A stretch of 64,000 nt of DNA from contig JAPPMG010000054.1 in NCBI GenBank assembly GCA_028819215.1, forward strand, positions 14,541 through 78,540, given 5' to 3'. Position numbers and translations under genes: made by a program. The stretch comes from Bryobacterales bacterium. Lineage in GTDB: Bacteria > Acidobacteriota > Terriglobia > Bryobacterales > UBA6623. Positions 18,992-33,572 of this stretch are shown here, one piece after another. The notes below the pieces were generated by a model. That model was not told the origin of the DNA and searched no databases. It worked only from the letters and a program-made list of their open reading frames with translations. Numbering within the stretch: position 1 is the first letter of the stretch; each line of letters starts with the position of its first letter.

Positions 18992-21862
18992 ATGTGTCGC
19001 GAATGGTACTCGGATCGCTTGCGGTCTCGCTCGCTCCGCGCCTCCGTCCTGGCTGTGACCGGCCTAGTCGCCGTAGCGGCGGTACAAGCACAGCCGTTCT
19101 CGGTTCGCGTGGCGTTCGGCTATGGTGACGACCCGCCCAACCGCTGGGCGGGCTCGATCGGTACGAACGGTGCCAGAATCGACGAACTCGGCGGCTGGCT
19201 CTTCGCGGGCGAGGATCGTATCGAGCTGGGTACTTTCGAGCTCGTCACAAGGCATCCGACACGGCCGGAGACCACCCCAAAAGGGTTGGTCGTGCGTGGC
19301 TCCGCGGATCCGGGCGCACGCCTCGACGTCTCGAGCCAGCACGGCGATTTTTCCTTCCGCCTAGACGAAGTCTCGGCTGGTGACGAGCTTGTGTTCCTTG
19401 ACGGCTGGGTCCGTGTCTCCGGCTTGCTCGGCGCTGAGAAGCTAACAGACGACTTGCGCTTCGACGACTTCCCGTCGGTGGCCGTTGCTGCCAACGGCGC
19501 CGCGTGGCTTGTCTGGCAATCCTACAGCGGCGGACGGGACGAGGTTCGTATTCGCAAGTTCGACCAGTCCTGGCGCACGTTCAGTCGCGTGCCGGGAGTG
19601 ACGGGCGACGTTTGGCGCCCGCAAGTCGCACTCGCCGCTGGCGGACGGCCGTGGGTCGTGTGGTCGCAGCAGAGCAACGGCAACTTCGATCTGTACGCGC
19701 GCGAACTGGACGAAGCGACGGGCAGGTGGGGTGATCTGGTCCGGTTGAGTTCGCATCCAAGCCAGGACATCGAACATCACCTTGTCGCAGACTCGCGTGG
19801 ATGGCTGTGGGTGGTTTGGCAAGGGTTCCGCGCCGGCAACGCGGACATCTTCCTGCGGTTCCACGACGGTTCGCAATGGTCGCCCGAAATCCAGGTCAGC
19901 GATCACCCGGCAAACGATTGGGAGCCCCGGGTCGCGATTGACCAGCAGGGGTCGGCCGTCGTGGTGTGGGATAGCTACCGCAACGGAAACTACGATGTTT
20001 TCCTTCGCCGCTTTGCTGGCGGAGAGCTCGGCCCGCTCGTGCCTGTCGCCACGACCGCGAAGTTCGAGGCACACGCCTCCGTAGCAGTCGATCTGGATGG
20101 GCGGGTCTGGGTGGCTTGGGATGAGGGCGCTGCAAACTGGGGAAAGGATTCCGGTCCGACGACTGATCCCGGTTGGATCGCAAGAGGACGCGAACTTTGG
20201 ACCACATGGATCAACGAGCCCTCGTCTCCGGGGGCGCGCCTGTACGAGTCTCGCAATCTCAACCTGGCCGTCTTCGAAGGCGGGCGAAGGATGGTGCCGC
20301 GCTCGAATCTTGTTGACACGCTGGATGGAGCTGGAATCCCTGATCACGACTTCCCCCAACTACATGTCGACCCGGCAAGCGGCCGGGTTGCCCTGCTGTT
20401 CCATCGCTGGAATCATGTCCGCTGGACGGAGAGCCTCGGCTTCCGGCCAACGTACTGGGAACACGCCGTCGTCTTCTTCGACGGGGATCGCTGGTCCCCA
20501 GTCCGCACGATGCCCGAGAGCTGGGGTCGAATCTCCGCGCGAGCCGATGCGGCATTCGGCCCGGACGGGAGCCTGACTGTCGTCTGGCCGACCGACGGGC
20601 GGCTTGAACAACGCCCGGTTCGAGACGTCCGGGCAAACATTCTGGCCGGACGTCTGGGACCTGGCGACGGTCCAGTCTCGTTGAATCTCGTTCCCAGCGC
20701 TCCAGACGATCCGACCCCGGTTGCGTCGGTTCATCCCCGCGAGAGCGCGGAGGTCGCCGCGATCCGAGCCTACCGGACATCCATTCGCGGCGCCGAGAAC
20801 CGGATCGTGCGTGGCGATCTTCATCGCCACACCGAGTTCTCGTGGGACTCGAGCGGAGGCATGGTGGACGGATCTGTGTTTGACTTCTATCGCTACATGC
20901 TCGATGCCGCAGCGATGGATTTCGGGGCGGTGACCGACCACAACTCGGGCGGCGACAGCGAGTACTGGTGGTGGCTTATCGAGAAGACCTCCGATCTCTT
21001 CCATGTCGGGCCGGCGTTCACAACGTTCTACGCGTACGAGCGAAGCGTCCCCTACCCCAACGGGCATCGCAACATCTTTCACACGCGGCGAGGCGTGCCG
21101 GTCGTCTCGTTCCACACCAAGGCCGACTTTGATCGTCCCCGCCCAACAATCGCTGCCGGGCGTGACACTGTGCTTGAGAACGATACAAAGTTGCTCTACG
21201 AATCGCTGCGACGCTCGGGCGGGATCTCCGTGCCCCACACCACCGGATCCAGCATGGGGACAGACTGGCGGGACAACGACCCCGAGGTCGAGCCGGTGGT
21301 TGAGGTCTTCCAGGGCGACCGCGTCTCGTACGAACACCCTGGAGGACCCCGTGCGCCCCGCTCCGCCGCCGACAACCCGATCGGGGGCTACCAGGAGGAC
21401 GGATTTCTCTGGAACGCGTATCGCAAGGGCTACAGGCTGGGAACGATCGCCAGTTCCGATCACTGGTCCACGCACATCTCGTACGCGATGGTCTACGCGG
21501 AGGCTCCGACTCGAGCCGCCATTTTCGATGCGATCAAGCAGCGGCGCACGTACGGTGCCACCGACAACATCATCTTGGAATACCGACTGGGCGAGCACTT
21601 CATGGGGGATGCGTTCGCCTCCAAATCCATCCCTCCACTGCAGATCCGCGTCGAGGGGACTGGCACCGTCGCTCTAGTCGAAGTGATCCGCAACGAGCGG
21701 GTCGTCTATTCGACTCGCCCCAACCGGCCTGACGTCAGTGTCGTCTACACCGACAATGATCCACTTCCGGCCAGGGCTTACTACTACGTTCGCGTCGTTC
21801 AGGACGACGGGGAAATCGCGTGGGGAAGCCCCATCTGGGTGGAGCGGCTGGAGTCACCCTAG
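18992..21862 (+). CDS. secreted beta-propeller repeat protein fused to a PHP/DUF3604-like metal-dependent hydrolase domain
   Basis: 956-aa ORF with a signal-like N-terminus (LRASVLAVTGLVAVAAVQAQ). It has five repeats spaced about 50-60 aa apart: WLVWQSYSGGRDEVRIRKF, WVVWSQQSNGNFDLYAREL, WVVWQGFRAGNADIFLRFH, VVVWDSYRNGNYDVFLRRF and VWVAWDEGAANWGKD. The C-terminal half carries RGDLHRHTEFSWDSSGG, GAVTDHNSGGD and SSDHWSTH, which are PHP-type metal ligand motifs. Confidence 0.75.
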   Translation: MCREWYSDRLRSRSLRASVLAVTGLVAVAAVQAQPFSVRVAFGYGDDPPNRWAGSIGTNGARIDELGGWLFAGEDRIELGTFELVTRHPTRPETTPKGLVVRGSADPGARLDVSSQHGDFSFRLDEVSAGDELVFLDGWVRVSGLLGAEKLTDDLRFDDFPSVAVAANGAAWLVWQSYSGGRDEVRIRKFDQSWRTFSRVPGVTGDVWRPQVALAAGGRPWVVWSQQSNGNFDLYARELDEATGRWGDLVRLSSHPSQDIEHHLVADSRGWLWVVWQGFRAGNADIFLRFHDGSQWSPEIQVSDHPANDWEPRVAIDQQGSAVVVWDSYRNGNYDVFLRRFAGGELGPLVPVATTAKFEAHASVAVDLDGRVWVAWDEGAANWGKDSGPTTDPGWIARGRELWTTWINEPSSPGARLYESRNLNLAVFEGGRRMVPRSNLVDTLDGAGIPDHDFPQLHVDPASGRVALLFHRWNHVRWTESLGFRPTYWEHAVVFFDGDRWSPVRTMPESWGRISARADAAFGPDGSLTVVWPTDGRLEQRPVRDVRANILAGRLGPGDGPVSLNLVPSAPDDPTPVASVHPRESAEVAAIRAYRTSIRGAENRIVRGDLHRHTEFSWDSSGGMVDGSVFDFYRYMLDAAAMDFGAVTDHNSGGDSEYWWWLIEKTSDLFHVGPAFTTFYAYERSVPYPNGHRNIFHTRRGVPVVSFHTKADFDRPRPTIAAGRDTVLENDTKLLYESLRRSGGISVPHTTGSSMGTDWRDNDPEVEPVVEVFQGDRVSYEHPGGPRAPRSAADNPIGGYQEDGFLWNAYRKGYRLGTIASSDHWSTHISYAMVYAEAPTRAAIFDAIKQRRTYGATDNIILEYRLGEHFMGDAFASKSIPPLQIRVEGTGTVALVEVIRNERVVYSTRPNRPDVSVVYTDNDPLPARAYYYVRVVQDDGEIAWGSPIWVERLESP

Positions 21863-23046
21863 GCGGGGGCGCCCGTGTGTCGAGATCCGGAAAGCCGGCG
21901 AGTACGTGGATCGCGCAATCTTGCAGCTAGGAGTCGCTCCGTGCACAGCAGCGCGATCCTGCGATAGAGACCTACGGACTAACTGGTGGCTACTACTTTG
22001 GGAACAGGGCGCAGGTGTTGAAAGGCGGGGAATGGACTCCGCAGATCGCGGGGGCATCTTGGTGCCCGTCCGGCGGCAGTGGGCAGTGATGGTTGATGGG
22101 ATCACCAGTCATCTAGAGGTCACTGAAGGCGTACACCGTCCATACACGGACCATCCATTCTCTGAGTTCTATCGAGTGAATCCCGGGGTTCAGAACAACG
22201 ACGTCCCGACACAAAGACTGATTGCGGTCTTGCCATCTGTCGTCAGGTTGTGGGGAGGGACCGATTCTCCCTTCATGCCAGTGGCGGTCTTGGATTTGAG
22301 CGCCAGAGTCAGTTCATCCGGTACCAACCGTTCTTGTACAGGAAGACCTAGACGGAAGCAGTGTCCTTGTTCGCTCTGAAGAATTCGTCGAATCCAGGGA
22401 CAGGGTATCGACTACACCCCTAATCGTTCGCGCGGGCATTCTTGCGAACCTCGCTCCACGCATTGTCGTGCGCGGGGGATAGTCGCACGTTATCGGTTAC
22501 TTCGAAACGGGCGCTTCCCGATCCCTCGAAGTGGGTATCCGATATCGTTTCTAGCAATTCTTCGCGATTGCGCTTGGATGCCTGTCCACTCATGTCGCGT
22601 CGAAAGTTGCCGAATACATGTGCGTGGTGTCAAGGGGCCGTCATGAGTTGCCCAAGCGGCCCGGATCGTCTTCGAACTGGCCAGCAGCCTGAGATTGCCT
22701 CGTTCTTCCTGCCGACTGAGCGCGTCCTTAGCGTTAAGCTCTCTAGCAGTTGAGTGTGTTGGGCAGGTTCTGGAGGCTCTCCAGCAGCATCTGCGGATCA
22801 GAGCCTCCTCCGATGGTTCATCGTCGAACAACAGCCGTGCAGACCACACGCTGACCTGAATCGGCACCCCGACCTAGAGCAACTCTAGACCGTTACGGGA
22901 TGCGCAAGGGCAGTGAAGGAGATGCCTGAGCGGATGGTCGCCGACCGCAAGGAAAGTTGTGAGATGGGAGGGCTGATCGGTGCTTTGGCAGGAAGATTAC
23001 TATTTCACTATGATAACGTGATGAATAATGCTACTTTATTAGTGGA

Positions 23047-23847
23047 ATGTCTGCAAATGCTGCACCGCGCGCCCGCGACGTCATCGCAGACCTAGCTGCC
23101 CGCGGCCAGTATAGCTTTGCCTCGTCTGAGTTTCGCTCGGCACTTGGCGTCTCCGAGCAGGCAGCACGTCAGGCGCTGAGCCGCGTCGCAGCCAAAGGGG
23201 AGATCGCAAGTCCGGCGCGAGGCTTCTACGTCATCGTGCCACCCGAGTACAGGCGGCTTGGCTGCCTGCCGGCTGACCAGTTCCTTCCGGCTCTCATGGA
23301 GCACCGGAGGGCCCGCTACTATGTCGGATTGCTCTCGGCCGCGCAATACCACGGAGCTGCCCATCATCGCCCGCAGGAGTTCCAGGTGATGTTGGGGACG
23401 AACAGGCCGATGATCGTCTGTGGTTCCGTCAGGGTCGCCTTCGTCGCGCGCAGAGAACTCGCCGCCGTGCCAGTGGAGAGCTTCAATAATCCACGCGGAA
23501 CGATTCTGGTCTCGACCGTAGAGGCGACGGCAGTCGATCTGGTCGGATACATGCATCGCGCCGGAGGTGTGGACCGAGTGGCGGGCGTGCTTTCCGAGCT
23601 TGGCGAGAATATGGATCCGGAGCGCCTCGCCGATGCTTCTGAATCTGCGTCGATCCTCTGGGTGCAGCGCCTGGGCTATCTGCTCGAGCGTGTCGGTGCT
23701 GGCGATAGGGCCGTTCTTCTCAAGGAGCATGTACGGCGGCGCGCGAGAAACTACACGAAACTCGTGCCCAGCGTGCGTGCTGACGGTGCGCCGCGCTCGC
23801 ACGACTGGCGTCTGTTCGTGAATGTAGGCGTAGAGGCGGACGTGTGA
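23047..23847 (+). CDS. abiEi: type IV toxin-antitoxin system antitoxin, AbiEi family
   Basis: 266-aa ORF. The N-terminal wHTH-like region reads FASSEFRSALGVSEQAARQALSRVAAKGEIASPARGFYVIVPPEY. Its stop overlaps the GTG start of the AbiEii gene (GTGA at 23844..23847). Confidence 0.85.
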   Translation: MSANAAPRARDVIADLAARGQYSFASSEFRSALGVSEQAARQALSRVAAKGEIASPARGFYVIVPPEYRRLGCLPADQFLPALMEHRRARYYVGLLSAAQYHGAAHHRPQEFQVMLGTNRPMIVCGSVRVAFVARRELAAVPVESFNNPRGTILVSTVEATAVDLVGYMHRAGGVDRVAGVLSELGENMDPERLADASESASILWVQRLGYLLERVGAGDRAVLLKEHVRRRARNYTKLVPSVRADGAPRSHDWRLFVNVGVEADV

Positions 23848-24674
23848 TCCCGCGGGACTACATCACCCAATGGCGGGAGCGGGCTCCGTGGAGCGAGGAC
23901 TTCCAGGTCGAGCAGGACCTGATCATCAGCCGCGCCTTGGTCGAGATGTTCTCCGATCCGGCTCTTGCTACAGCGCTTGCCTTCCGGGGAGGTACGGCGC
24001 TATACAAGCTCTACCTGACGCCGCCCGCCCGCTATTCCGAGGACATCGATCTCGTGCAGGTCGCGCCAGGGCCTGCTGGTACCTTGATGGACGGCCTGCG
24101 AGACGTCCTCGATCCTTGGCTCGGCGAAGCGCGATGGAAGCAGTCTCAAGGCCGGGTGACGTTCGGCTACCGGTTTCTGTCCGAGGACGTGCCGGCGATG
24201 AGGCTACGTCTCAAAGTCGAGATCAATACTCGTGAACACTTTGCGGTATTGGGCTTCACCAAACGCTCGTTCTCGGTCGATTCGCGGTGGTACTCCGGAA
24301 TGGCGAATATCACGACCTTCGAACTCGATGAATTGTTGGCAACGAAGCTGAGGGCGCTCTATCAGCGTCGCAAGGGCCGGGATCTCTTCGACCTAGCGAC
24401 GGGACTTGCCGATAAGCGAATCGATGCCGGACGGATCGCGGCGGCGTTTGGCGCGCACATGGAGCGTGAGGGCGATCCGGTGACCCGCGCGATGTTCGAA
24501 AGGAATCTCGCGGGCAAGGTGGGCGATGCTCAGTTCAATGCTGACATGAGCGCGCTTCTTAGGACGGGCTTCCAGTGGCGTGCGACCGAAGCGGCGCGGA
24601 CAGTATCCGAGCGGCTCATTGCGCTACTCCCGGGCGAGCCATGGAAGGGACGACCGGGGCGTGGGTCGGCGTAG
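23844..24674 (+). CDS. abiEii: nucleotidyltransferase toxin, AbiEii/AbiGii (DUF1814) family
   Basis: 276-aa ORF. AFRGGTALYKLYLTPPARYSEDIDLV is the AbiEii NTase core (GG..L.K....RYSEDID), with KVEINTREH downstream. Confidence 0.88.
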   Translation: MIPRDYITQWRERAPWSEDFQVEQDLIISRALVEMFSDPALATALAFRGGTALYKLYLTPPARYSEDIDLVQVAPGPAGTLMDGLRDVLDPWLGEARWKQSQGRVTFGYRFLSEDVPAMRLRLKVEINTREHFAVLGFTKRSFSVDSRWYSGMANITTFELDELLATKLRALYQRRKGRDLFDLATGLADKRIDAGRIAAAFGAHMEREGDPVTRAMFERNLAGKVGDAQFNADMSALLRTGFQWRATEAARTVSERLIALLPGEPWKGRPGRGSA

Positions 24675-24718
24675 GGCCTTGTACTGGTTCCATTGCCGTT
24701 CGCTTGGCTGCCCTTGCA

Positions 24719-24756
24719 CTTCTACAGGAAATAGGGGTAGCATAGACCTGTAGAAG
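24719..24756. promoter_or_regulatory. candidate PadR operator: CTTCTACAGG-N18-CCTGTAGAAG
   Basis: Perfect 10-bp inverted arms (24719..24728 and 24747..24756) lie 15-52 bp upstream of the PadR TTG start. The arms are identical at the paralogous site 28213..28250, while the spacer differs at 3 positions. Confidence 0.5.
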
Positions 24757-24770
24757 CGAAAGGGGACCTC

Positions 24771-25097
24771 TTGTCGAGCATCGACCTTCCGCAGGGCACT
24801 CTGGACCTGCTGATTCTCAAGACCCTCAACCTCGAGCCCCAGCATGGCTGGGGGATCTCGGAACGTATCCGACAGATCTCACACGAGGTTCTCCATGTCC
24901 AACAGGGATCGCTGTATCCAGCGCTGCATCGGCTGGAACGACGAGGGTGGATTCGAGCGACATGGGGCGTATCTGACAACAATCGGCGCGCCAAGTACTA
25001 CGAGCTCACGCCCGAAGGGCGGAGGCAACTGGAAGATGCATCCGCCTCATGGCAGAAGCTGTCCGCCGCCGTGCAGATCATTCTTGACACGGCCTAG
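24771..25097 (+). CDS. PadR-family transcriptional regulator (Acidobacterial ADOP-associated type)
   Basis: 108-aa ORF with a TTG start after AAAGGGGA. QGTLDLLILKTLNLEPQHGWGISERIRQISHEVLHVQQGSLYPALHRLERRGWI is the PadR wHTH. It sits immediately upstream of the permease. Confidence 0.88.
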   Translation: MSSIDLPQGTLDLLILKTLNLEPQHGWGISERIRQISHEVLHVQQGSLYPALHRLERRGWIRATWGVSDNNRRAKYYELTPEGRRQLEDASASWQKLSAAVQIILDTA

Positions 25098-25109
25098 CCG
25101 GAGGAGACG

Positions 25110-27782
25110 TTGCTCGGAGACCTGCTTTATCGAGGGCGTGCGCTATTCCGGCGCAAGGTCGTGGAGGACGATCTCGACGCAGAGTTGCAATTCCACCTGG
25201 ACAGACTGACGGAGCAGCATGTCCGCGCCGGAAAAACGCCAGACGAAGCCCGGCGGCTCTCGAGGATAGCTCTCGGCGGCGTTTCTCAGATCAAGGAGCA
25301 GTGCCGCGAGTCTTGGGGAGTGGGCTGGATTCACGCTGTGGCCAAGGATCTCGGCTACGCCTTGGTGCGCGTGCGGAGATACCCTCGGTCAGCAGCCATG
25401 ATCGAGGGCAGTCTGGCGCTCGGAATCGGAATGAGTGTCGCCATGTTTTCGCTGGTGGACGCGGTTCTGTTGCGCCCCCTGCCGTTCCCGAACCAAGACT
25501 CGATTTATGTGATCCAGAAGGCAGATCCTCTCGCGGGAGCCCACGTCGAGGAGCTCGCATACCCAGAGTTGGTTGATCTTCAGGAGAGCATCCCGGGGTT
25601 CGAGTATGTGGCTGTCACCCCGACCTCCCTCTACGGCTATGCCAGGGTGCTGGAGACCGGGACGGCCGATCCGGTCCAACTCGAAGCCTCACCCGTATCG
25701 CACGACTTCTTCCGTGTTCTCGGTGTTACCCCCCGCCTGGGTCGGGGGTTCACCGATTCCGACGAACGGGTTGGCGCCCCGCCGGTCGTTGTGATTTCGG
25801 ATCGCACATGGCGTGAACATCTGGGCGCGGATCCCGGAATCATCGGTCGGACCGTGCGCTTGAACGGCCAGGGCCACAGCGTGATCGGCGTCATGGCGCC
25901 TGGCGTCGAGTTTCCGCGGGGAGCTGCCCTTTGGGTTCCGCTGGGGATCGAACAGCGCGTCGTCGAGCGTCGCGGCGCGACGTTCCTGCAAGCGGTGGCG
26001 CGCTCCAAACCCGGCTATCCACGTCAACAGGTCGATCGGGACGTGAGCGCTCTCTTCACGCGACTCGCGAATGAGTACCCGGAATCGTATTCGAGCTCGC
26101 AGCGGGGAGTGGTAACACCGCTGGTCAACTATTGGACCGGATCGGCAAGGATTCACTTGTGGATCGTCCTCGGGGCCTCTCTACTCTTGCTGACCGCGTC
26201 CGCGATCAGCTCGGGGGGACTGCTGCTCTCACGCGCGGTGTCACGTCGTTCCGAGATTGCCACGCATCTCGCGCTAGGAGCTCCGCCGAGGCGAATCTTT
26301 ACGCGGATGGCCGCCGAGGGTGCAGTCGCGGGAGTCATCGCCGCAATCGCCGGACTTGGTATCGCGTACTTAGTGATTCACTCCTTGGTGAAATGGCCTC
26401 CAGCCGATATTCCGCGACTGTCCGAAGCGTCGTTGGATCTGAATTCCTTTTGTTTCGCTGTCGGAGCGGCAGCCTTTGTCGCTGTAGTGTGCTCGCTTGC
26501 GCCTGGATGGGCTCTCTCGAGAATGCGCCTCGAATCCGCAATCAGGGAAGGCGATCCTCGATCTTCGGTGTCGCACCGCGCCAATCGGTCGCGCGGCCTA
26601 TTCGTTCTTGCTCAGTCTGCGGTGACGTTTGTGCTGTTGGCAACGGCCGTCCTGCTCGTGCTGAGCTATCGCTCCGTGGCACTCGTTGAGACCGGTCTCG
26701 CGAATCGCGACGCACTAACTATGGATGTATCGCTGCGAGGTCCGGGCTTGTTTCCGTCCCAAGCCTTCGATCCGGTTACAACCGACGCATTCTACTCGCG
26801 CCTCTTGCAACGGTTGCGGGAGGAGCCAGGCGTCACCTCGGCGGGCGCAATTCTGCTGCGGCCACTTGCAGGCCCTATCGGATGGGATATCCCCTACGAG
26901 TTCGAGTTCGAGGCGGGCAGTTGGGATGGCAAGCAGCGTCCGAAGGCGAACTACGAGGTCGTGACCGCCGACTACTTCGAGACCGTTGGATCGCCGTTGC
27001 TGCAAGGGCGGGACTTCGACAGTCGCGATTCGCAGGAAGCGGAACCGGTCGCAATTATCAGCGAGACCCTCGCCGACCGAGTTCGATCCGCTGGTCACAC
27101 GCCGCTTGGCCATCGCGTCAGGCTCGCGATCCGCTGGAGTCCAGGGTGGATGCGCGTGGTGGGCATCTCCGGAGATGCCCGCTATCGATCCGGCACTCAC
27201 TCGGGCGCGCATATCTTCGTGCCAATTCTACAGGCAGGGCAAGCGACTCGACATGTCGTCATCCGCGGACCTCGACCCCGCCAAGAACTTTCGGAGCTGG
27301 TACAGCGCTTGGTGAGGGAGATCGATCCCAGCCAGAATGCGGGCGACCCGCTCACGATCGGTGAACTGATCGATAGGGACACTGCGCGACATCGATTCAA
27401 TGTGATCATGCTGCTGTGGTTCGGTGCCTGTGCAGTGTTCCTTGCCGTAACTGCGGTCTATAGCGTGATCGCTGAGACGATGGCGGCCCGCCGGACTGAG
27501 GTAGCGATCAAGTCAGCGCTGGGTGCGCAGCGAAACCAAGTTGTGCGCGACTTGGTCGTGCGAACGATACGTTTTGCTGTTTTGGGTCTCGCGGTCGGCA
27601 CCGCAGCTGTGTCCGTGTTGGGCACACTGGGTCCGGATGTGTTTCGCGGCACTTCCGCACGCGATCCGATTGTCTTGATCCCAGTCGCGGCCTTCCTCTT
27701 CGTCGTTTCTCTGGGCGCAGCTGTCTGGCCAGCTTGGCACGCAACGCGAGACAATCGCCGGACTTTGCTTCGTGAGAGCTAG
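25110..27782 (+). CDS. duplicated FtsX/MacB-type permease, ADOP family (copy 1)
   Basis: 890-aa ORF with a TTG start after GGAGGAG. Its architecture is an N-terminal amphipathic cytoplasmic segment, a TM segment, a MacB-like periplasmic domain and an FtsX 4-TM bundle, and then that same arrangement again. There is no ATPase domain. Confidence 0.88.
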   Translation: MLGDLLYRGRALFRRKVVEDDLDAELQFHLDRLTEQHVRAGKTPDEARRLSRIALGGVSQIKEQCRESWGVGWIHAVAKDLGYALVRVRRYPRSAAMIEGSLALGIGMSVAMFSLVDAVLLRPLPFPNQDSIYVIQKADPLAGAHVEELAYPELVDLQESIPGFEYVAVTPTSLYGYARVLETGTADPVQLEASPVSHDFFRVLGVTPRLGRGFTDSDERVGAPPVVVISDRTWREHLGADPGIIGRTVRLNGQGHSVIGVMAPGVEFPRGAALWVPLGIEQRVVERRGATFLQAVARSKPGYPRQQVDRDVSALFTRLANEYPESYSSSQRGVVTPLVNYWTGSARIHLWIVLGASLLLLTASAISSGGLLLSRAVSRRSEIATHLALGAPPRRIFTRMAAEGAVAGVIAAIAGLGIAYLVIHSLVKWPPADIPRLSEASLDLNSFCFAVGAAAFVAVVCSLAPGWALSRMRLESAIREGDPRSSVSHRANRSRGLFVLAQSAVTFVLLATAVLLVLSYRSVALVETGLANRDALTMDVSLRGPGLFPSQAFDPVTTDAFYSRLLQRLREEPGVTSAGAILLRPLAGPIGWDIPYEFEFEAGSWDGKQRPKANYEVVTADYFETVGSPLLQGRDFDSRDSQEAEPVAIISETLADRVRSAGHTPLGHRVRLAIRWSPGWMRVVGISGDARYRSGTHSGAHIFVPILQAGQATRHVVIRGPRPRQELSELVQRLVREIDPSQNAGDPLTIGELIDRDTARHRFNVIMLLWFGACAVFLAVTAVYSVIAETMAARRTEVAIKSALGAQRNQVVRDLVVRTIRFAVLGLAVGTAAVSVLGTLGPDVFRGTSARDPIVLIPVAAFLFVVSLGAAVWPAWHATRDNRRTLLRES

Positions 27783-27980
27783 CTATCTGCAGTGCGCCAG
27801 CGTTCGAATCGCCATCGCCCCGGATTGGAACCCTTGCTGATGGCCTATCTGTCCCGTTGGTACGACTGCCCGCCCCCGGGCCTGCGGCTGGCCGTACGTT
27901 CGCAGGTCGATCCCGACCCGCATACTGATTCGGTGGGCAGGTCTGACCATGGCATCGGCACGGAAGCCCTCATTGGAGCC

Positions 27981-28183
27981 CTTGAGCATGTTGGCGCTGG
28001 CGATAGGGCCGTTCTTCTCAAGGAGCATGTGCGCCGGCGCGCGAGGAACTACACAAAGCTCCTTCCCAGCGCGTGTGCTGAGGGTGCTCCGCGTTCGAGG
28101 GACTGGCGTCTGTTAGCGAATGCAGCCGTGGAGCCGGACAAGTGATCCCACGGGACTACATCACCCTATGGCGGGAGCGGGTT
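27981..28183 (+). pseudogene. AbiEi 3'-terminal remnant (about 55 codons, frame and stop intact) plus the first about 14 codons of AbiEii, truncated by deletion
   Basis: LEHVGAGDRAVLLKEHVRRRARNYTKLLPSACAEGAPRSRDWRLLANAAVEPDK* aligns with the AbiEi C-terminus LERVGAGDRAVLLKEHVRRRARNYTKLVPSVRADGAPRSHDWRLFVNVGVEADV*. The GTGA overlap is retained at 28142..28145. After GGCGGGAGCGGG the sequence jumps to the PadR leader. It lies within track ORF 27792..28145. Confidence 0.75.
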
Positions 28184-28212
28184 CCATTGCCGTTCGCTTG
28201 GCTGCCCTTGCA

Positions 28213-28250
28213 CTTCTACAGGGAATACGAGTAGCATAGACCTGTAGAAG
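28213..28250. promoter_or_regulatory. candidate PadR operator (paralogous copy): CTTCTACAGG-N18-CCTGTAGAAG
   Basis: Arms at 28213..28222 and 28241..28250 are identical to those at 24719..24756, in the same position relative to the PadR start. Confidence 0.5.
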
Positions 28251-28264
28251 TGAAAGGGGACCTC

Positions 28265-28591
28265 TTGTCGGGCATCGACCTTCCGCAGGGCACATTGGAC
28301 CTGCTGATTCTCAAGACCCTCAACCTCCAGCCGCAGCATGGCTGGGGTATCTCGGAAAGGATCCGACAGATCTCCGATGAAGTTCTCCAAGTCCAACAGG
28401 GATCGCTGTATCCGGCCCTGCATCGGCTGGAACGTCGAGGGTGGATTCGCGCGACATGGGGTGTGTCTGATAACAATCGGCGCGCCAAGTACTACGAGCT
28501 TACGCCCGCAGGGCGGAGCCAACTAGAAAATGCATCCGCCTCATGGCGGAAGCTGTCCGACGCCGTGCAGATCATTCTTGACACGGCCTAG
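28265..28591 (+). CDS. PadR-family transcriptional regulator (copy 2)
   Basis: The track ORF starts at GTG 28250. I prefer the TTG at 28265, which is conserved with copy 1 and has the same AAAGGGGA upstream. The protein is nearly identical to copy 1. Confidence 0.85.
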   Translation: MSGIDLPQGTLDLLILKTLNLQPQHGWGISERIRQISDEVLQVQQGSLYPALHRLERRGWIRATWGVSDNNRRAKYYELTPAGRSQLENASASWRKLSDAVQIILDTA

Positions 28592-28600
28592 CCGGAGGAG

Positions 28601-31273
28601 ATGTTGCTCAGAAACCTGCTTTATCGAGGCCGTGCGCTATTCCAGCGCAAGGTCATGGAGGACGATCTCGATGCAGAGTTGCAATTCCACCTAGACCGAC
28701 TGACGGAACAACATGTTCGCGCCGGAAAAGCGCCAGACGAAGCCCGGCGGCTCTCGAGGATAGCTCTGGGAGGCGTTACTCAGATCAAGGAGCAGTGCCG
28801 TGAGTCCTGGGGAGTGAGCTGGATTCACGCTCTGGCCAGGGATCTCGGCTACGCCTTGGTCCACATGCGTAGATACCCTCGGTCTGCAGCCATGATCGTA
28901 GGCAGCTTGGCGCTCGGAATCGGAATGAGCGTCGCCATGTTTTCGCTGGTGGACGCGGTTCTCCTGCGACCCCTGCCGTTCCCGGATCAGGATTCGATCT
29001 ATGTGATCCAGAAGGCAGATCCTCTCGCGGGAGCCCACGTCGAGGAACTCGCGTACCCGGAGCTTAGCGACCTGCAGGAGAGCATCCCGGGGTTCGAATA
29101 CGTAGCTGTAACGCCAGTGGCTCTCTACGGCAACGCCCGAGTGCTCCAGTCTGGAACGGCCGACCCAGTGCAACTAGAAACAGCCCTCGTGTCGCACGAC
29201 TTCTTCCGAGTTCTGGGTGTCTCGCCACGCATGGGAAGGAATTTCGTAAGTGCCGACGAACGAGTCGGTGCACCACCAGTTGTCGTCGTATCTGATCAAA
29301 CTTGGCGTGATCAATTGGGGGCGGACCCCGGCATCATCGGCCGCACGGTGCGCCTCAATGGTCAGGGCCATACGGTGATCGGTGTCATGGCGACGGGCGT
29401 CGAGTTCCCTCGAGGGGCTGCCCTCTGGATACCGCTAGGGATCGAAGAAGGGATCGTCGAGCGTCGCGGAGCGACTTTCCTGCAAGCGGTGGCGCGTGCC
29501 AAGCCTGACTATTCACGTCAACAGGTCTATAGCGACGTGAGGGCGCTATTCAAGCGACTCGCAGCCGAATACCCGGAAGCGTATTCAAGCTCGCAGCGGG
29601 GAGTGGTGATACCGCTGGTTAACTATTGGACCGGATCGGCAAGGATTCACCTGTGGATCGTCCTCGGGGCCTCTCTGCTTCTGCTGATCGCGTCCGCGAT
29701 CAGCTCGGGGGGAATTCTGCTCTCACGCGCAGTGTCACGCCGTTCCGAAATTGCCACGCATCTCGCGCTCGGAGCTCCGCCGAGACGAGTTCTTGCCCAG
29801 ATGGCCGCCGAGGGTGCAGTCGCGGGAGGCATCGCCGCAATTGCCGGACTGGGAATCGCGTACTTGCTGATTCGCTCCTTGGTGAGATGGCCCCCAGCCG
29901 ATATTCCGCGACTGTCCGAGGCCTCGTTGGATCTGAACTCCTTTTGTTTCGCTGCCGGGGCGGCGGCCTTTGTGGCTGTTGTGTGCTCGCTTGCACCCGG
30001 ATGGGCAGTCTCGAGAACGCGCCTCGAATCCGCAATCAGGGAAGGCGATCCTCGATCTTCGGTGTCGAACCGCGCCAAGCGGGCGCGCGACCTATTCGTT
30101 CTTGCGCAGTCCGCGGTGACCTTCGTGCTGCTGGCAACCGCCGTCCTGCTCGTTCTGAGCTATCGTTCCGTGGCGTTCGTTGAGACCGGTTTCGCGAATC
30201 GCGATGCACTAACGCTGGATGTCTCGCTGAGAGGTCCGGGCGTGTTTCCTGCCCTAGGCTTCGACACCGGTGCGCGGCACGTATTCTATTCGCACCTCTT
30301 GCAACGGTTGCGCGAGGAGCCAGGTGTTACCTCGGCCGGTGCAATCCTACTGCGGCCGCTTGCGGGCCCCATCGGATGGGATATCCCCTATGAATTCGAG
30401 TTCGAGGCGGGCAGTTGGGATGGCAAGCAGCGTCCTAAGGCGAACTACGAGGTCGTAACCGCCGACTACTTCGAGACCGTTGGATCACCGTTGCTGCAAG
30501 GGCGGGACTTCGACAGTCGCGATTCGGAGGAAGCGGAGCCGGTCGCGATTATCAGCGAGACGCTAGCCGACCAAGTGCGATCCGCTGGCCACACGCCCCT
30601 TGGCCATCGCATCCAGGTAGGGAGTGGGAGGCGGGGCTGGAGGCGCATCGTTGGCATCTCTGGAGACGCCCGCTACCGGTCCGGCACTCACTCAGGCGCG
30701 CACATTTTCCTGCCAATCCTACAGGCGAATCAACCGACGCGGCACGTCGTGATTCGCGGCCCCGTGCCTCGTCAGGAGCTCTCGGCGCTGGTACAGCGCG
30801 TTGTGAGGGAAATCGATCCTAGCCAGAATGCGGGCGACCCGCTCACGATCGGTGAACTGATCGATTGGGACACGGCACGACATCGATTCAATGTGATCCT
30901 GCTGCTGTGGTTTGGCGCCTGTGCGGTGATCCTTGCCGTTACTGCGGTCTATAGCGTGATCGCCGAGACGATGGCGGGCCGCCGGACCGAGGTCGCAATC
31001 AAGTCGGCCCTGGGGGCACAGCGAAACCGAGTTGTGCGCGACTTAGTGGTGCGTACCCTACGATTCGCTGTTCTCGGTCTCGTGCTCGGCACCGCGGCTG
31101 TCTCCTCGTTTGGCAGCCTTAGTCTGGATGTGTTTCGCGGCACTTCCGCACAGGACCCGATTGTCCTGATCTCAGTAGTGGCCTTCCTCTTTGTTGTTTC
31201 TCTGGGCGCCGCCGTCTGGCCGGCCTGGCACGCAACGCGAGACTGTCGCCGCACCTTGCTTCGTGAGAGCTAG
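28601..31273 (+). CDS. duplicated FtsX/MacB-type permease, ADOP family (copy 2)
   Basis: 890-aa ORF with an ATG start after GGAGGAG. It is collinear with copy 1, has no indels, and most residues are identical. Confidence 0.88.
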   Translation: MLLRNLLYRGRALFQRKVMEDDLDAELQFHLDRLTEQHVRAGKAPDEARRLSRIALGGVTQIKEQCRESWGVSWIHALARDLGYALVHMRRYPRSAAMIVGSLALGIGMSVAMFSLVDAVLLRPLPFPDQDSIYVIQKADPLAGAHVEELAYPELSDLQESIPGFEYVAVTPVALYGNARVLQSGTADPVQLETALVSHDFFRVLGVSPRMGRNFVSADERVGAPPVVVVSDQTWRDQLGADPGIIGRTVRLNGQGHTVIGVMATGVEFPRGAALWIPLGIEEGIVERRGATFLQAVARAKPDYSRQQVYSDVRALFKRLAAEYPEAYSSSQRGVVIPLVNYWTGSARIHLWIVLGASLLLLIASAISSGGILLSRAVSRRSEIATHLALGAPPRRVLAQMAAEGAVAGGIAAIAGLGIAYLLIRSLVRWPPADIPRLSEASLDLNSFCFAAGAAAFVAVVCSLAPGWAVSRTRLESAIREGDPRSSVSNRAKRARDLFVLAQSAVTFVLLATAVLLVLSYRSVAFVETGFANRDALTLDVSLRGPGVFPALGFDTGARHVFYSHLLQRLREEPGVTSAGAILLRPLAGPIGWDIPYEFEFEAGSWDGKQRPKANYEVVTADYFETVGSPLLQGRDFDSRDSEEAEPVAIISETLADQVRSAGHTPLGHRIQVGSGRRGWRRIVGISGDARYRSGTHSGAHIFLPILQANQPTRHVVIRGPVPRQELSALVQRVVREIDPSQNAGDPLTIGELIDWDTARHRFNVILLLWFGACAVILAVTAVYSVIAETMAGRRTEVAIKSALGAQRNRVVRDLVVRTLRFAVLGLVLGTAAVSSFGSLSLDVFRGTSAQDPIVLISVVAFLFVVSLGAAVWPAWHATRDCRRTLLRES

Positions 31274-31585
31274 CTGCCTGCAATGCGCCAGCATCCGCAT
31301 CACCATCGCCTCGAATCAGAATCCGCGCTGATGGCTCACCAAGGGGATCGCTACAGCTACCCTCCTCAGGACTTGTGGCCGGTCGTACGTCCGCAGGTCG
31401 GTTCCTTCTCGTATGCTGAATCCGTGGGCAAGTCTGAGCACGGCGTCGCCCTAGCAGCTCTTGGCGGAGCCATTGAGTCAGCGACAAGCTTGGTCGGCTG
31501 GTTGGTTGCAACGCGCCTGACTGCCTCGACCGGGATTGGCTCGTCTTCCATGCTCGCGCTGGGCTTGGCCTAGGAGAACCGTAAC

Positions 31586-32839
31586 TTGGACAAGGCACGC
31601 ATCGGATACGCCCGGAGGAAGCGCATCCGGCGGATCGTCTTGGGATCCGTTGCGGGAACGGCATTCTTGGCAGTTGCTTGGGTGGTGTCCCGCATCGAGC
31701 CGGCAGCTCCTGGCGTGGATGCTGCTGCGGTCTTCACCGACACCGTCGAGCGTGGCGAGATGCTACGGCAGGTTCGGGGCATCGGAACGCTCGTGCCCGA
31801 GGCTGTGGTCGTGATCGCCGCAAGCGATGCTGGGCGCGTCGAGCGACGCCTCGTCCAGCCCGGTCAGTCTGTAAAACCGGGCACTGTGCTGCTCGAACTC
31901 AGCAGTCCGCAGGTCGAGCAGGAATACCTCGACGCCGAGGCTCAACTCAAGGAAGCCGAGGCCGACCTTGCCAACCTCCGGGCGCAGCTCGAGGACCAGC
32001 GTCTCACCCAGGAGTCAGTGACCGCCGACGTGGAAGGGCAGTACCTTCAGGCCAAGGCGCAGTACGAGGCTGACCTCGCACTCTCGGAGGAGGGTCTGAC
32101 GGATCAGGTCACCCTGATGAAGTCGCGCGTCTCGATGGAACACCTGCGCAAGCAGTTCCAGTTGGAGCGCGCCCGGGAGGACGCCCGCAAGCCCTCGGTA
32201 GACGCACAGCTGACGGCGCAGAGGGCCCGCATCGCACAGATGGAAGCACTCGTGGCGCTGCGCGAAGAAAAGGTCGACCGACTCAGGGTTCGGGCCGGGA
32301 TGAACGGGGTCCTCCAGCTCATGGATGTTGAGGTCGGACAGCTGGTCGCCCCTGGCGACGAGCTGGCACGAGTGTCCGATCCGACGCACCTCAAGGCGGA
32401 GCTCAAGATCCCGGAGACACTGGTGAATGACGTGGCCGTCGGGCAGCGGGCGGAGGTCGACACCCGGAACGGGGTGATCGAGGGGGTGGTCTCGCGCATC
32501 GATCCGGCCGCGATCGAAGGGACCGTACTGGTTGACATCAGGCTGCTCGGCGAAATGCCCCGAGGCGCCCGGCCCGACCTTAGCGTGGACGGGACGATCG
32601 AACTCGAGCGGCTCGAGAATGTACTGCACGTGGGTCGCCCCATCCATGCCAGGGAGGAGAGCCTCATGGGACTCTTCAAGCTGGAAGAAGACCAAGCCCA
32701 CGCCTCGCGCGTCCAAGTTCAGGTGGGCAAGGTATCAGTCAGCACGATCGAAGTACGTTCCGGCCTGAGCGAGGGCGACAATGTGGTCTTATCCGACATG
32801 TCTGCGTGGGACGCCTACGACAGGATCCGGCTCGAATAG
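31586..32839 (+). CDS. HlyD/MacA-type periplasmic adaptor (membrane fusion protein)
   Basis: 417-aa ORF with a TTG start 9 nt after AGGAG. It has an N-terminal TM anchor, a lipoyl/hairpin region (VKPGTVLLELSSPQVEQEYLDAEAQLKEAEADLANLRAQLE), and beta-barrel and membrane-proximal regions. Confidence 0.88.
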   Translation: MDKARIGYARRKRIRRIVLGSVAGTAFLAVAWVVSRIEPAAPGVDAAAVFTDTVERGEMLRQVRGIGTLVPEAVVVIAASDAGRVERRLVQPGQSVKPGTVLLELSSPQVEQEYLDAEAQLKEAEADLANLRAQLEDQRLTQESVTADVEGQYLQAKAQYEADLALSEEGLTDQVTLMKSRVSMEHLRKQFQLERAREDARKPSVDAQLTAQRARIAQMEALVALREEKVDRLRVRAGMNGVLQLMDVEVGQLVAPGDELARVSDPTHLKAELKIPETLVNDVAVGQRAEVDTRNGVIEGVVSRIDPAAIEGTVLVDIRLLGEMPRGARPDLSVDGTIELERLENVLHVGRPIHAREESLMGLFKLEEDQAHASRVQVQVGKVSVSTIEVRSGLSEGDNVVLSDMSAWDAYDRIRLE

Positions 32840-32879
32840 GCAGCCAGTTTCGCATCAAAAGGAGACGTGAAGTCAGACA

Positions 32880-33572
32880 ATGGCAGATTCTACAAACGGC
32901 AGTGCACCACTTATCCGCTTGGAGGGTGTGTCGAAGGTATTCTTCACCGATGAGGTGGAGACGCACGCGCTTTCGGGCATCGACTTCGAGATCCGTGATG
33001 GCGAATACATCGCGATCTCGGGTCCCTCGGGCTGCGGCAAGTCGACGCTGCTGTCGATTCTCGGATTGCTCGACACCCCCACCGCTGGCGTGTACCGGCT
33101 GAACGGCGAGTCAGTCGAGGATCTGAATGCCAGGCAGCGGGCCCGCATCCGGAACCGCCAGATCGGCTTCATCTTCCAGGCGTTCAACCTGATCGGTGAC
33201 CTGACGGTGTTCGAGAACGTCGAACTGCCACTCACCTATCGGGGGATGCCGTCTTCCGAACGCAAGAAGCGGGTGGAGGATGCCCTGGAACGCGTCGGTA
33301 TGGCGCACCGCATGAAGCACTACCCCTCGCAGCTGTCGGGCGGGCAGCAGCAGAGAGTCGCGGTGGCCAGGGCCCTCGGAGGAGATCCGTCGGTGCTGCT
33401 GGCTGACGAGCCGACAGGGAATCTGGACTCGAAAAACGGCGAGGCCGTGATGGACCTGCTCCAAGACGTCCATCAGGGCGGGGCCACTATCTGCATGGTG
33501 ACCCACGACCCGCGGTTCGAGGCCCGCGCAAAGAAAGTAGTGCGCCTGTTCGACGGGAAGATCGTCGAATAG
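32880..33572 (+). CDS. stand-alone ABC transporter ATP-binding protein, MacB/LolD type
   Basis: 230-aa ORF with Walker A GPSGCGKST, Q-loop, signature LSGGQQQRVAVARAL, Walker B VLLADEPTGNLD and H-loop MVTHD. Confidence 0.93.
   Translation: MADSTNGSAPLIRLEGVSKVFFTDEVETHALSGIDFEIRDGEYIAISGPSGCGKSTLLSILGLLDTPTAGVYRLNGESVEDLNARQRARIRNRQIGFIFQAFNLIGDLTVFENVELPLTYRGMPSSERKKRVEDALERVGMAHRMKHYPSQLSGGQQQRVAVARALGGDPSVLLADEPTGNLDSKNGEAVMDLLQDVHQGGATICMVTHDPRFEARAKKVVRLFDGKIVE

Follow-up and report, generated by a model that had tools for sequence, protein, structure and literature searches.

AbiE is a type IV toxin-antitoxin and abortive-infection system in which AbiEi serves as the antitoxin and regulator and AbiEii as a GTP-specific nucleotidyltransferase toxin (Dy et al. 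2014, PMC3985639). A 4-nt overlap between abiEi and abiEii was described in Streptococcus agalactiae, and it was found that the C-terminal domain of AbiEi alone can neutralise AbiEii, in which mutated residues included the GG and DxD motifs (PMC3985639). We detected an akin locus in the window, by which we mean the whole 64,000-nt stretch analysed here (Bryobacterales bacterium GCA_028819215.1, contig JAPPMG010000054.1, positions 14,541-78,540 of the forward strand); all coordinates below are window positions, and all features lie on the + strand. Positions 23047-24674 are likewise predicted to encode both AbiEi domains and a full-length AbiEii with a 4-nt overlap, and the GG and DxD residues bear the same residue numbers as those mutated in the earlier study. 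The second copy in the window differs from the described system, being a fragment (AbiEi 213-266 and AbiEii 1-14) with no domain and no toxin.

The intact abiEi gene (23047..23847; 266 aa), an antitoxin/regulator gene located 5' of the first of two padR-ADOP units, encodes PF13338 (residues 12-64, 9.5e-6) and PF09407 (residues 73-214, 3e-44) domains, yields a full-length PADLOC match (2e-88), and is 90.6% identical at the amino acid level to its orthologue in L003 (L-numbers denote the related loci compared with the window, the relatives all being metagenome-assembled genomes). The intact nucleotidyltransferase toxin gene abiEii (DUF1814; 23844..24674; 276 aa; PF08843, 3.7e-36; PADLOC full length, 1.7e-106) carries, by its translation, motif I GG at G49 G50 and motif II DxD at D67 and D69. 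Its GTG start is placed over the abiEi stop in the GTGA at 23844-23847, forming a bicistronic operon with a 4-nt overlap, and a consensus promoter scan flagged a putative promoter-like site (TTGGCA-18-TATGAT, 22985-23014) 33 nt 5' of abiEi. A 20-nt inverted repeat around abiE (22899-22918 vs 24703-24722, 80%) was taken as chance; it lies outside the upstream part common to L003. Neither the window's AbiEi nor P0001 had a record in exact-sequence look-ups, and an Rfam E-value scan of 22000-33000 gave no match.

In unit 1, padR1 (24771..25097; TIGR03433, padR_acidobact, 154.1 bits vs a cut-off of 101.8) lies directly 5' of the ADOP1 permease gene (25110..27782; 890 aa; TIGR03434, 628.9 bits vs a curated cut-off of 622.3), with a gap of 12 nt. 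The same arrangement recurs in unit 2, where 9 nt separate padR2 (28265..28591; 153.8 bits vs 101.8) from ADOP2 (28601..31273; 890 aa; 632.7 bits vs 622.3); by homology, the padR1 start corresponds to the TTG at 28265, and the padR2 reading frame is open from 28250. Each permease contains two MacB_PCD and two FtsX stretches (Pfam). Together, the Pfam, PADLOC, TIGR03433 and TIGR03434 matches confirm the AbiE, PadR and ADOP identities given in the original prediction. The right flank is single-copy and comprises genes for an HlyD-family membrane-fusion protein (MFP; 31586-32839; Pfam) and a stand-alone ABC ATPase (32880-33572; PF00005, 1e-34), which form a collinear 3' flank in all relatives.

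Comparison of the window with itself by blastn revealed that 23683-23887 matches 27981-28185 over 205 nt without a gap (85.4%, E 2.9e-64), and that 24686-27986 matches 28180-31477 over 3301 nt at 85.6%, with one 3-nt gap at 27130-27132. These segments form two collinear head-to-tail copies with a new junction that joins unit end to unit start. Such a recurrence at 27981..28183, right after the first permease and its tail, had been noticed by eye, and the significant, collinear alignment bears it out; the accompanying hand counts of mismatches were exact for the tails (38/127) and the padR leaders (4/85), and for the recurring abiEi end we counted 29/193, against about 27. The parent copy of the duplicated piece, R1 (23683..23887), begins at the left duplication breakpoint (23683) and takes in abiEi codons 213-266 with their stop, the GTGA overlap and the first 14 codons of abiEii. 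Its counterpart, the R2 remnant (27981..28185), spans abiEi codons 213-266, a TGA at 28143-28145, and abiEii codons 1-14. Immediately upstream, tail 1 (27783..27986) consists of the first 204 nt of the spacer between ADOP and the MFP gene, ended by the right breakpoint. The two meet at the duplication junction CTTGAG (27981..27986), in which T(C/T)GAG is common to both parental sites, a microhomology of 3-5 nt.

The 3' end of the remnant is a second junction (CGGG|TTCC, 28178-28185), created by loss from unit 2 of about 804 nt, most of abiEii, that in unit 1 occupy 23883..24685, as delimited by the junction strings, which agree with the original prediction (GAGCGGGCTCC on the left and TACTGGTTCC on the right in unit 1; GAGCGGGTTCC in unit 2), and by a repeat search that returned these same two blocks, spaced by 4298 and 3494 nt, the difference being the 804-nt deletion. 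The microhomology is an exact GG in the window, and would extend to CGGG(C/T)TCC had the right site read CGGGTTCC, the form seen in L003 and L001. A short repeat at both parental sites, one copy of it at the junction, and an available undeleted state are the marks of microhomology-mediated deletion, in keeping with the later, microhomology-flanked abiEii loss that had been proposed.

Searching related genomes for the unduplicated and undeleted state, as the original prediction had suggested, we found it in L003 (abiEi-abiEii-leader-padR-ADOP-tail-post-MFP) and also in L004-6. The tail runs straight into the "post" segment in every single-copy genome (L001, L002, L003, L004-6), and this single-copy state, with the two collinear blocks, establishes the tandem duplication. 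In L018 the order is padR-ADOP, a 101-aa chimeric ORF, a 30-aa ORF and then padR-ADOP-MFP, with both the duplication and the deletion junctions base-identical to those of the window, while the contig of L025 begins inside the remnant and has the same abiEii deletion junction. As these are independent assemblies, the events are real and old. AbiE is an accessory block: it is absent 5' of the padR-ADOP module in L001, L018, L021 and L024, and its right edge always falls within some 10 nt of where the leader begins. A functional link between AbiE and the permease found no support. Where the window has intact abiE 5' of unit 1, L018 and L024 have a 155-nt spacer. No trace of abiE was seen in that of L018, leaving a simple abiE deletion there unsupported. 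A genome with an intact second abiEii was not found, and a scan of metagenome contigs with ADOP2 returned nothing closer than 76%. Truncated abiEi pieces also occur in the related metagenomes L019 and L020, and the abiEii of L004 is frameshifted and truncated.

The history that we consider highly probable is a segmental tandem duplication, after which the copied toxin-antitoxin piece decayed to a dead remnant. The ancestor would have been abiEi-abiEii-padR-ADOP-spacer-MFP-ABC. An unequal, microhomology-level crossover at T(C/T)GAG would have fused the ADOP-MFP spacer, at its position 204, to abiEi codon 213, giving two padR-ADOP units with a truncated abiEi 3' end and an initially complete second abiEii before unit 2. 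An 804-nt deletion between the CGGG(C/T)TCC microhomologies would then have removed this second abiEii, its end falling precisely where the padR leader begins, and the leftover at 27981-28185 would be in frame with the truncated spacer ORF by accident only. We infer this order of events, and selection may have acted against an unguarded second toxin gene. Since L018 and L024 carry the 155-nt spacer instead of abiE, the simple history needs an extra loss or an allele replacement.

Both padR-ADOP units are under purifying selection (padR2 vs padR1, dS 0.24 and omega 0.18; ADOP2 vs ADOP1, 87.1% amino acid identity and omega 0.16). The synonymous divergence between them is strongly heterogeneous (chi-square 62.3, p 2e-8), and dating of the duplication from dS was rejected for that reason. 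A "type B" segment of ADOP2 in the first periplasmic domain (28971..29470) shares about 73% identity with unit 1 but 97% with the gene that L001 has in single copy, with 54 informative sites joining unit 2 and L001 (bootstrap 100). Sliding identities and segment trees delimit a divergent segment of unit 1 (26977..27276), 82-87% identical to most relatives, whose divergent state is common to L018 unit 1 and to the units of L021, L024 and L025; the latter three are unit-1-like up to about 27277 and unit-2-like from there on. In three ADOP segments the units 1 group together and the units 2 group together across the window and L018, and the L018 units cluster with each other in the leader and padR, the ADOP 3' end, and tail positions 1-98. 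Judged by these segment comparisons, the units have diverged in patches, through gene conversion between them, collapse to hybrid single copies in some relatives, and segment exchange across lineages, and such a recombination mosaic is unusable as a clock. As a separate observation, the first periplasmic domain of ADOP exists in two types, A and B, which are about 73% identical and coexist across species.

Informative sites across the unit join units 1 and 2 in 16 cases and join each unit to L003 in 38 and 28 cases, and none joins the remnant to the window's own abiEi, so that the copies are not each other's closest relatives, as an origin within one lineage would have them be. Simple in-place duplication followed by divergence becomes less likely as a result, the structural claim being unaffected. 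It is possible, though on balance unlikely, that the units diverged before they were joined, an incoming abiE-bearing locus from a related strain having recombined unequally with the resident copy, at one end by homology and at the other by TNGAG microhomology. In that case the remnant would derive from the 3' end of an abiEi that was once functional in another strain, and would not be a copy of the window's own gene. In line with this, the remnant, the window's abiEi and the abiEi of L003 are star-related (85.4, 83.9 and 86.8%), and units 1 and 2 are 85.7% alike, as compared with 90.9% and 89.1% of each to the single-copy orthologue. L018 has the junction without abiE 5' of unit 1, and exchange between lineages is demonstrated at this locus. 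The remnant stem is also rich in synonymous changes (6 synonymous to 4 nonsynonymous in the abiEi frame; 5 to 0 in the first 28, conserved codons, p 0.02-0.09), too rich for a fragment dead since the duplication, which suggests that it was once, for some time, part of an intact abiEi. However, an incoming locus takes one event more than duplication between sister chromosomes to account for the intact abiE 5' of unit 1 in the window, and every tree is blurred by gene conversion and imports. In addition, the background synonymous divergence between units (0.19-0.30) equals that among the species sharing the junction (0.23-0.31), which an old duplication followed by divergence in place would account for just as well.

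The original prediction had seen in the remnant a better preservation than in the tails, which suggested a constraint. The tails, however, are a misleading neutral yardstick. Tail 2 with its "post" segment (31274..31585) is a complete ADOP-MFP spacer of class 2, containing a 96-codon ORF (31283-31573), and is 90-97% identical to the spacers of L021/24/25/26 and 66-74% identical to class 1. Tail 1 belongs to class 1 and is 87% identical to the spacers of L001/L003. Tail 2 therefore represents a separate allele class common to the closest relatives, and the 70% identity between the tails, being a comparison of two classes, is not drift since the duplication. Like for like, same-class tails are 84-86.5% identical (13.5-16% different), and the remnant, at 85.4%, drifts as they do and is close to the unit-wide mean of 85.6%, around which stretches within the unit vary from 66% to 96%. 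Divergence as even as this removes the argument for constraint by the very condition that the original prediction had set for its refutation. Gene conversion, also offered as a possible cause, is one of the processes behind the mosaic divergence of the units. Across species, we observe that the two small ORF/spacer classes between ADOP and the MFP gene (66-74% identical) coexist.

The predicted 117-codon ORF is present (27792..28145; 117 codons from GTG, or 101 from the ATG at 27840), and fuses the 5' part of the spacer ORF in frame to the AbiEi C-terminus. We give only a small chance to the view that selection maintains the remnant, be it as a translated C-terminal peptide of AbiEi or as regulatory sequence of padR2, and the comparisons of remnant carriers come close to refuting it. 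In its favour, window and L018 both have the ORF intact, with start and stop unchanged between them, and no terminator-like site separates ADOP1 from the ORF or lies in tail 1, which makes transcription of the ORF probable. The stem's synonymous changes would fit this view as well, as would the antitoxicity reported for the isolated AbiEi C-terminal domain (PMC3985639). Yet the remnant covers only the last 54 positions of the AbiEi profile (207-260 of 260; PADLOC), has no Pfam match, and, corresponding to AbiEi residues 213-266, falls outside the PF09407 match (residues 73-214), so that the domain sufficient for antitoxicity is absent. Between the window and L018, the abiEi frame of the remnant has 5 nonsynonymous and 0 synonymous changes and its abiEii frame 1 nonsynonymous change, with an omega of 1.18 in the spacer part of the chimeric ORF and of about 1 over the whole. 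All changes in the three remnants amount to about 8 synonymous and 13 nonsynonymous, the expected synonymous share being 0.26-0.31 (p 0.16-0.28). Private branch lengths are 15 for the remnant, 9 for the window's abiEi and 14 for that of L003. There is thus no protein-level purifying selection between remnant carriers, contrary to the idea of a still-translated peptide under constraint. The ADOP-MFP spacer itself may be a gene, as it is indel-free and open in most genomes and is called as a protein of 78-96 aa in many clusters; its omega is 0.5-1.3, and it is frameshifted in L001.

At the nucleotide level, window and L018 share 97% identity over 27893-28264, as selection on the remnant would have it. 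This stretch belongs, however, to a high-identity tract of about 3 kb that includes synonymous sites of ADOP2, and we attribute it to a recombination tract running to about 30850, nucleotide-level constraint being the alternative. Relative to L025, the remnant is 88.7% identical, below the 96.2% of the adjoining leader. A role in regulating padR2 is further disfavoured by L001, L021 and L024, which run the same padR-ADOP module with unrelated sequence 5' of the leader, and a peptide role by L018, which keeps the remnant without any abiEii to neutralise within the fetched locus. By these comparisons, the remnant is a non-functional pseudogene fragment drifting approximately neutrally.

The conserved element is the padR leader that follows it. 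Leader 1 (24686..24770) reads TTGCAC (24714-24719), an 18-nt spacer, TAGCAT (24738-24743) and a putative ribosome-binding site, AAGGGGA, and contains a perfect inverted repeat, CTTCTACAGG-N18-CCTGTAGAAG (CTTCTACAGG at 24719-24728 and CCTGTAGAAG at 24747-24756). Leader 2 (28180..28264) has 4 mismatches to it in 85 nt, and the leader core is conserved in 15 loci, including the distant L007-9. The conservation of the leader would be due to this core, which appears promoter/operator-like. In the consensus promoter scan the padR leader was not among the flagged sites, as TTGCAC matches at 3/6 positions only, and its putative regulatory role is read from conservation.

Insertion of AbiE into a pre-existing duplicated padR-ADOP array, with the remnant as an insertion scar, would accord with the absence of AbiE in L001, L018, L021 and L024 and with its right edge within about 10 nt of the leader start, but is very improbable: abiEi-abiEii already stand directly 5' of padR-ADOP in single-copy L003-L006, which refutes it; the remnant follows the order of the abiEi 3' end, stop, overlap and abiEii 5' end collinearly and abuts a truncated spacer, a signature of a duplication junction; and no insertion would deposit an internal piece of 205 nt at a distance of 4.3 kb. 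The window evidently comes from a metagenome assembly, as do the relatives, and the contigs of L022, L025 and L026 break at this locus, yet an assembly artefact stitching two strains into one contig has a negligible chance, because other samples, assembled independently, show the spacer/remnant and deletion junctions again, with identities of 91% and about 89%.

Taken as duplication and decay, the unit with its antitoxin fragment is real but ordinary genome evolution, with no new mechanism, and a caution: the uneven divergence that resembled constraint came from recombination mosaicism and from comparison across allele classes. In these uncultured Bryobacterales, padR-ADOP units expand, collapse and exchange segments freely, and the AbiE toxin-antitoxin loci adjoining them are accessory and often decaying. 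Whether the padR-ADOP-spacer locus is a hotspot at which diversity is maintained, and not a passive duplicate, is a more doubtful matter, and we lean clearly against it; if it were, its types would be shuffled by gene conversion, array collapse and re-expansion, and between-lineage exchange, as might be expected if balancing or diversifying selection acted on recognition by the permease.

As in other padR_acidobact/ADOP modules (TIGR03433, TIGR03434), both units of the window score above the family cut-offs and show the usual padR-then-ADOP order. The family name of ADOP (TIGR03434) includes the word "orphan", which we take to mean that no ABC ATPase gene lies beside the permease. Here this trait does not hold: an ABC ATPase gene lies two genes 3', after the HlyD-family adaptor, in an operon-like row kept in relatives. 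A literature search on ADOP returned irrelevant matches only. Like known tandem duplications with concerted evolution, the window has head-to-tail units, a new microhomology junction and single-copy relatives, and hybrid single-copy units (L021/24/25) and within-genome clustering (L018) are likewise seen. It differs in that its copies are older than, or have been exchanged across, species-level splits, and they form no clade because they carry segments imported from other lineages. Finally, the fragment resembles toxin-antitoxin genes decaying to orphan pieces, such as the abiEi pieces of L019 and L020 and the frameshifted abiEii of L004, but it was made by the duplication breakpoint itself and not by later erosion alone.

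The window carries an AbiE locus, abiEi (23047-23847; PF13338 and PF09407, PADLOC 2e-88) and abiEii (23844-24674; PF08843, PADLOC 1.7e-106), followed by two units, padR1 (24771-25097) with ADOP1 (25110-27782) and padR2 (28265-28591) with ADOP2 (28601-31273). Both PadR genes scored above the TIGR03433 cut-off and both permeases above that of TIGR03434, and a HlyD-family adaptor (the membrane-fusion gene, MFP; 31586-32839) and an ABC ATPase (32880-33572) follow ADOP2. These matches agree with the gene identities of the original prediction, and computed alignment recovered the repeat it had seen by eye: 27981-28185 aligned to 23683-23887 free of gaps (205 nt, 85.4% identity, E = 2.9e-64), and 28180-31477 to 24686-27986 with a single 3-nt gap (3301 nt, 85.6%). 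Its hand counts of mismatches were also accurate (38/127 in the tails downstream of the ADOP genes, 29/193 in the remnant, 4/85 in the padR leader). The copied piece comprises AbiEi codons 213-266, the stop codon, the GTGA overlap and AbiEii codons 1-14. In the repeat search the first block was spaced by 4298 nt and the second by 3494 nt, and unit 2 therefore lacks 804 nt present in unit 1.

Scanning species-representative genomes with ADOP2 yielded nine loci from uncultured Bryobacterales/Terriglobia. The L003-type locus is the unduplicated, undeleted state that the original prediction had supposed, with a single-copy order of abiEi-abiEii-leader-padR-ADOP-tail-post-MFP-ABC-TonB-type receptor (tail and post being the first 204 nt and last 108 nt of the ADOP-MFP spacer) and AbiEi and AbiEii proteins 90.6% and 93.1% identical to those of the window. 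L004-6 resemble it, with additional DNA separating abiEii from padR, and L001 has a single-copy unit without abiE; in every single-copy genome the tail runs through the post to the MFP start uninterrupted. A protein search with the chimeric ORF (27792-28145, part spacer and part AbiEi C-terminus) found an 86% identical 101-aa ORF in a second genome, L018, whose contig is ordered padR-ADOP-chimeric ORF-30-aa ORF-padR-ADOP-small ORF-MFP-ABC. The duplication and deletion junctions of L018 are base-identical to those of the window, and the L025 contig, which begins within the remnant, has the same deletion junction; both rearrangements are therefore real, single and old events. Genes flanking the array differ between the window and L018 by a dS of 0.23-0.28.

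The unit boundary reads GGAGCCCTTGAG|CATGTTGG, fusing two parental sites that share T(C/T)GAG. Its left part is position 204 downstream of ADOP, where unit 2 and all relatives continue ...ATTGAG|TCAGCG, and its right part is abiEi, the unit 1 counterpart reading ...CTGCTCGAG|CGTGTCGG. At the deletion junction unit 2 reads GAGCGGG|TTCC, and the parental sites in unit 1 are GAGCGGGCTCC (left) and TACTGGTTCC (right); L003 and L001 have CGGGTTCC at the right site, and the ancestral microhomology was therefore probably CGGG(C/T)TCC. The second toxin gene, preceded by a truncated antitoxin, lacking its own promoter and transcribed from ADOP1, would likely have been selected against; no terminator-like site lies between ADOP1 and the position of the lost gene.

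Constraint on the remnant, proposed from its better preservation than the tails, is supported neither by like-for-like tails nor by remnant-bearing genomes. The remnant (85.4%) matches the mean of the whole unit, within which 100-nt windows span 66-96%, and synonymous differences between the units show strong heterogeneity when counted in blocks of 60 ADOP codons (chi-square = 62.3, 13 df, p = 2e-8). The tails are no neutral yardstick, because tail 1 and tail 2 belong to different spacer classes: tail 2 and post are 90-97% identical to the spacers of the window's closest relatives (L021, L024, L025 and L026), and the tail-2 class is 66-74% identical to the class of tail 1, both L018 tails, L001 and L003-6. 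Same-class tails diverge about as much as the remnant (86.5% between the two L018 tails in the half free of conversion homogenisation; 84.8% between window tail 1 and L018 tail 2), an equality under which the original prediction itself would have dropped the argument. Between the window and L018, all 5 changes of the remnant in the abiEi frame are nonsynonymous, as is the one in the abiEii frame, and omega is 1.18 in the half of the chimeric ORF that derives from the spacer. Between the window and L025, the remnant is 88.7% and the adjoining leader 96.2% identical (padR2 dS 0.31), and changes among the three remnants comprise ~8 synonymous and 13 nonsynonymous, against an expected synonymous share of 0.26-0.31 (p = 0.16-0.28). 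Of the 260 positions in the AbiEi profile, the remnant represents only 207-260, past the PF09407 match (residues 73-214); in a studied AbiE system it is the entire AbiEi C-terminal domain that suffices for antitoxicity (PMC3985639). Sequence upstream of the leader is unrelated in L001, L021 and L024, so the remnant is not needed for padR-ADOP. The ADOP1 stop TAG (27780-27782) is followed by 120 open codons in the same frame, through tail 1 into the AbiEi remnant (27780-28145), probably a coincidence, since one in three such fusions would be in frame by chance.

The leader (24686-24770 and 28180-28264) is conserved for its own reason, apart from the remnant. Its core, CCCTTGCAC-TTCTACAGG...TAGCAT...CCTGTAGAAG...AAGGGGA...TTG, is kept in 15 leaders, including the distant loci L007-9, and holds -35-like and -10-like hexamers overlapped by a perfect 10-nt inverted repeat, making it a candidate promoter/operator; the consensus promoter scan did not flag it.

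Divergence along the array is a mosaic. Identity to L018 is 84.5% at 27783-27892 and ~97% at 27893-28264, and the high-identity zone continues to ~30850, with a dS of 0-0.1 in ADOP2 windows and of 0.28 overall in ADOP1. Such identity could be mistaken for constraint, but given this extent we read the zone as a tract of recent recombination linking the two lineages. The stretch 30850-31900 (ADOP2 3' end, spacer and MFP 5' end) is much more diverged from L018 than its flanks (dS 0.39-0.43; spacer 64-73%), is 97-100% identical to L026, and looks like an imported or allele-class patch. The first periplasmic (MacB_PCD) segments of the two units (25477-25976 and 28971-29470) are deeply diverged (~73%, dS >0.9): the unit 2 version matches that of single-copy L001, from another species (~10370-10870), at 97% and that of unit 1 at 73%, unit 1 itself being ~90% identical to L003-L008 here. 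This pattern points to a domain-sized cassette exchanged recently between lineages. At 26977-27276 it is unit 1 that departs from the others, grouping with L018 unit 1. The two L018 units cluster with 100% bootstrap in leader/padR, the ADOP 3' end and tail positions 1-98, which indicates gene conversion, and the single units of L021, L024 and L025 are unit-1-like to ~27277 and unit-2-like beyond, the exact product that array collapse or conversion would produce.

Of the changes that the abiEi frame acquired on the stem to the remnants, 6 are synonymous and 4 nonsynonymous; the first 28 codons, which are conserved, have 5 and 0, respectively (p = 0.02-0.09). No site groups the remnant with the abiEi of the window itself, and abiE is missing upstream of unit 1 in L018 and L024. 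Together, these observations suggest that the remnant was for some time part of a functioning abiEi. The truncation could postdate the divergence of the two copies, or a bigger duplication could have been trimmed afterwards. A third route, which we consider less likely than not, is unequal recombination with a related strain that supplied the second copy; units 1 and 2 are 85.7% identical, below the identity of each to a single-copy orthologue (90.9% and 89.1%), and 16 informative sites join the two units, with 38 and 28 joining each to L003. Such an origin, if true, would alter the history and leave the structure and the status of the remnant unchanged. Insertion of abiE into an existing array is excluded by the unduplicated, undeleted state in single-copy relatives.

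The abiE block is accessory: 5 of the examined loci carry it, and 4 others with the same padR-ADOP module lack it. Its adjacency to the permease, which had been taken as a physical link between the two, is not functional evidence. In L018 and L024, 21889-24692 (2.8 kb, made up of abiEi-abiEii and the 1.2 kb preceding it) is swapped for an unrelated ~155-nt spacer between the same 956/1004-aa gene and the padR leader (L018 6699-6853; L024 6352-6507), with HicAB pairs just upstream, and the site behaves like a small replaceable islet. The ORF that immediately precedes the abiE block (956 aa; 18992-21862), with no Pfam family in the precomputed gene tables, is kept in L018 (92%) and L024 (96.6%); in L024 a 157-nt spacer homologous to that of L018 and then the hybrid unit follow it. 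Decaying AbiE material occurs in related metagenomes: a frameshifted and truncated abiEii (L004 7447-8089), a 78-aa abiEi 3' fragment inside a defence island with HigB, PemK, RloB and type I restriction-modification (L019 3940-4176), and an 89-aa abiEi fragment ahead of an intact abiEii (L020 164-433). A 20-nt inverted repeat (80% complementary, core GCAAGGGCAG) brackets the abiE pair, with one arm ~130 nt upstream of abiEi (22899-22918) and others inside each padR leader (24703-24722 and 28197-28216), likely by chance.

The ADOP-MFP stretch (~300 nt) falls into two classes (66-74% identical), is indel-free and has one frame open in nearly all relatives (window 31283-31573, truncated copy 27792-27986; L003 12674-12973; L018 13492-13734; L024 9644-9886), ending in a conserved TAG just 5' of the MFP ribosome-binding site. 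It is a candidate gene: >12 protein clusters include the frame as a called protein of 78-96 aa whose C-terminus is hydrophobic, but its omega is 0.5-1.3 and the L001 copy has a 1-nt frameshift. Behind ADOP (25110-33572 in the window), every relative has a HlyD-family adaptor, a stand-alone ABC ATPase and a TonB-dependent-receptor-like protein, and the 'orphan' ADOP may instead form the permease component of a tripartite pump of the MacAB kind.

The finding is real, carefully observed and ordinary. Judged by its sequence, the intact abiEi-abiEii pair represents a typical AbiE type IV toxin-antitoxin locus, both units are typical padR_acidobact/ADOP modules, and the rearrangements are of standard kinds: tandem duplication at microhomology, microhomology-flanked deletion and concerted evolution of the copies.
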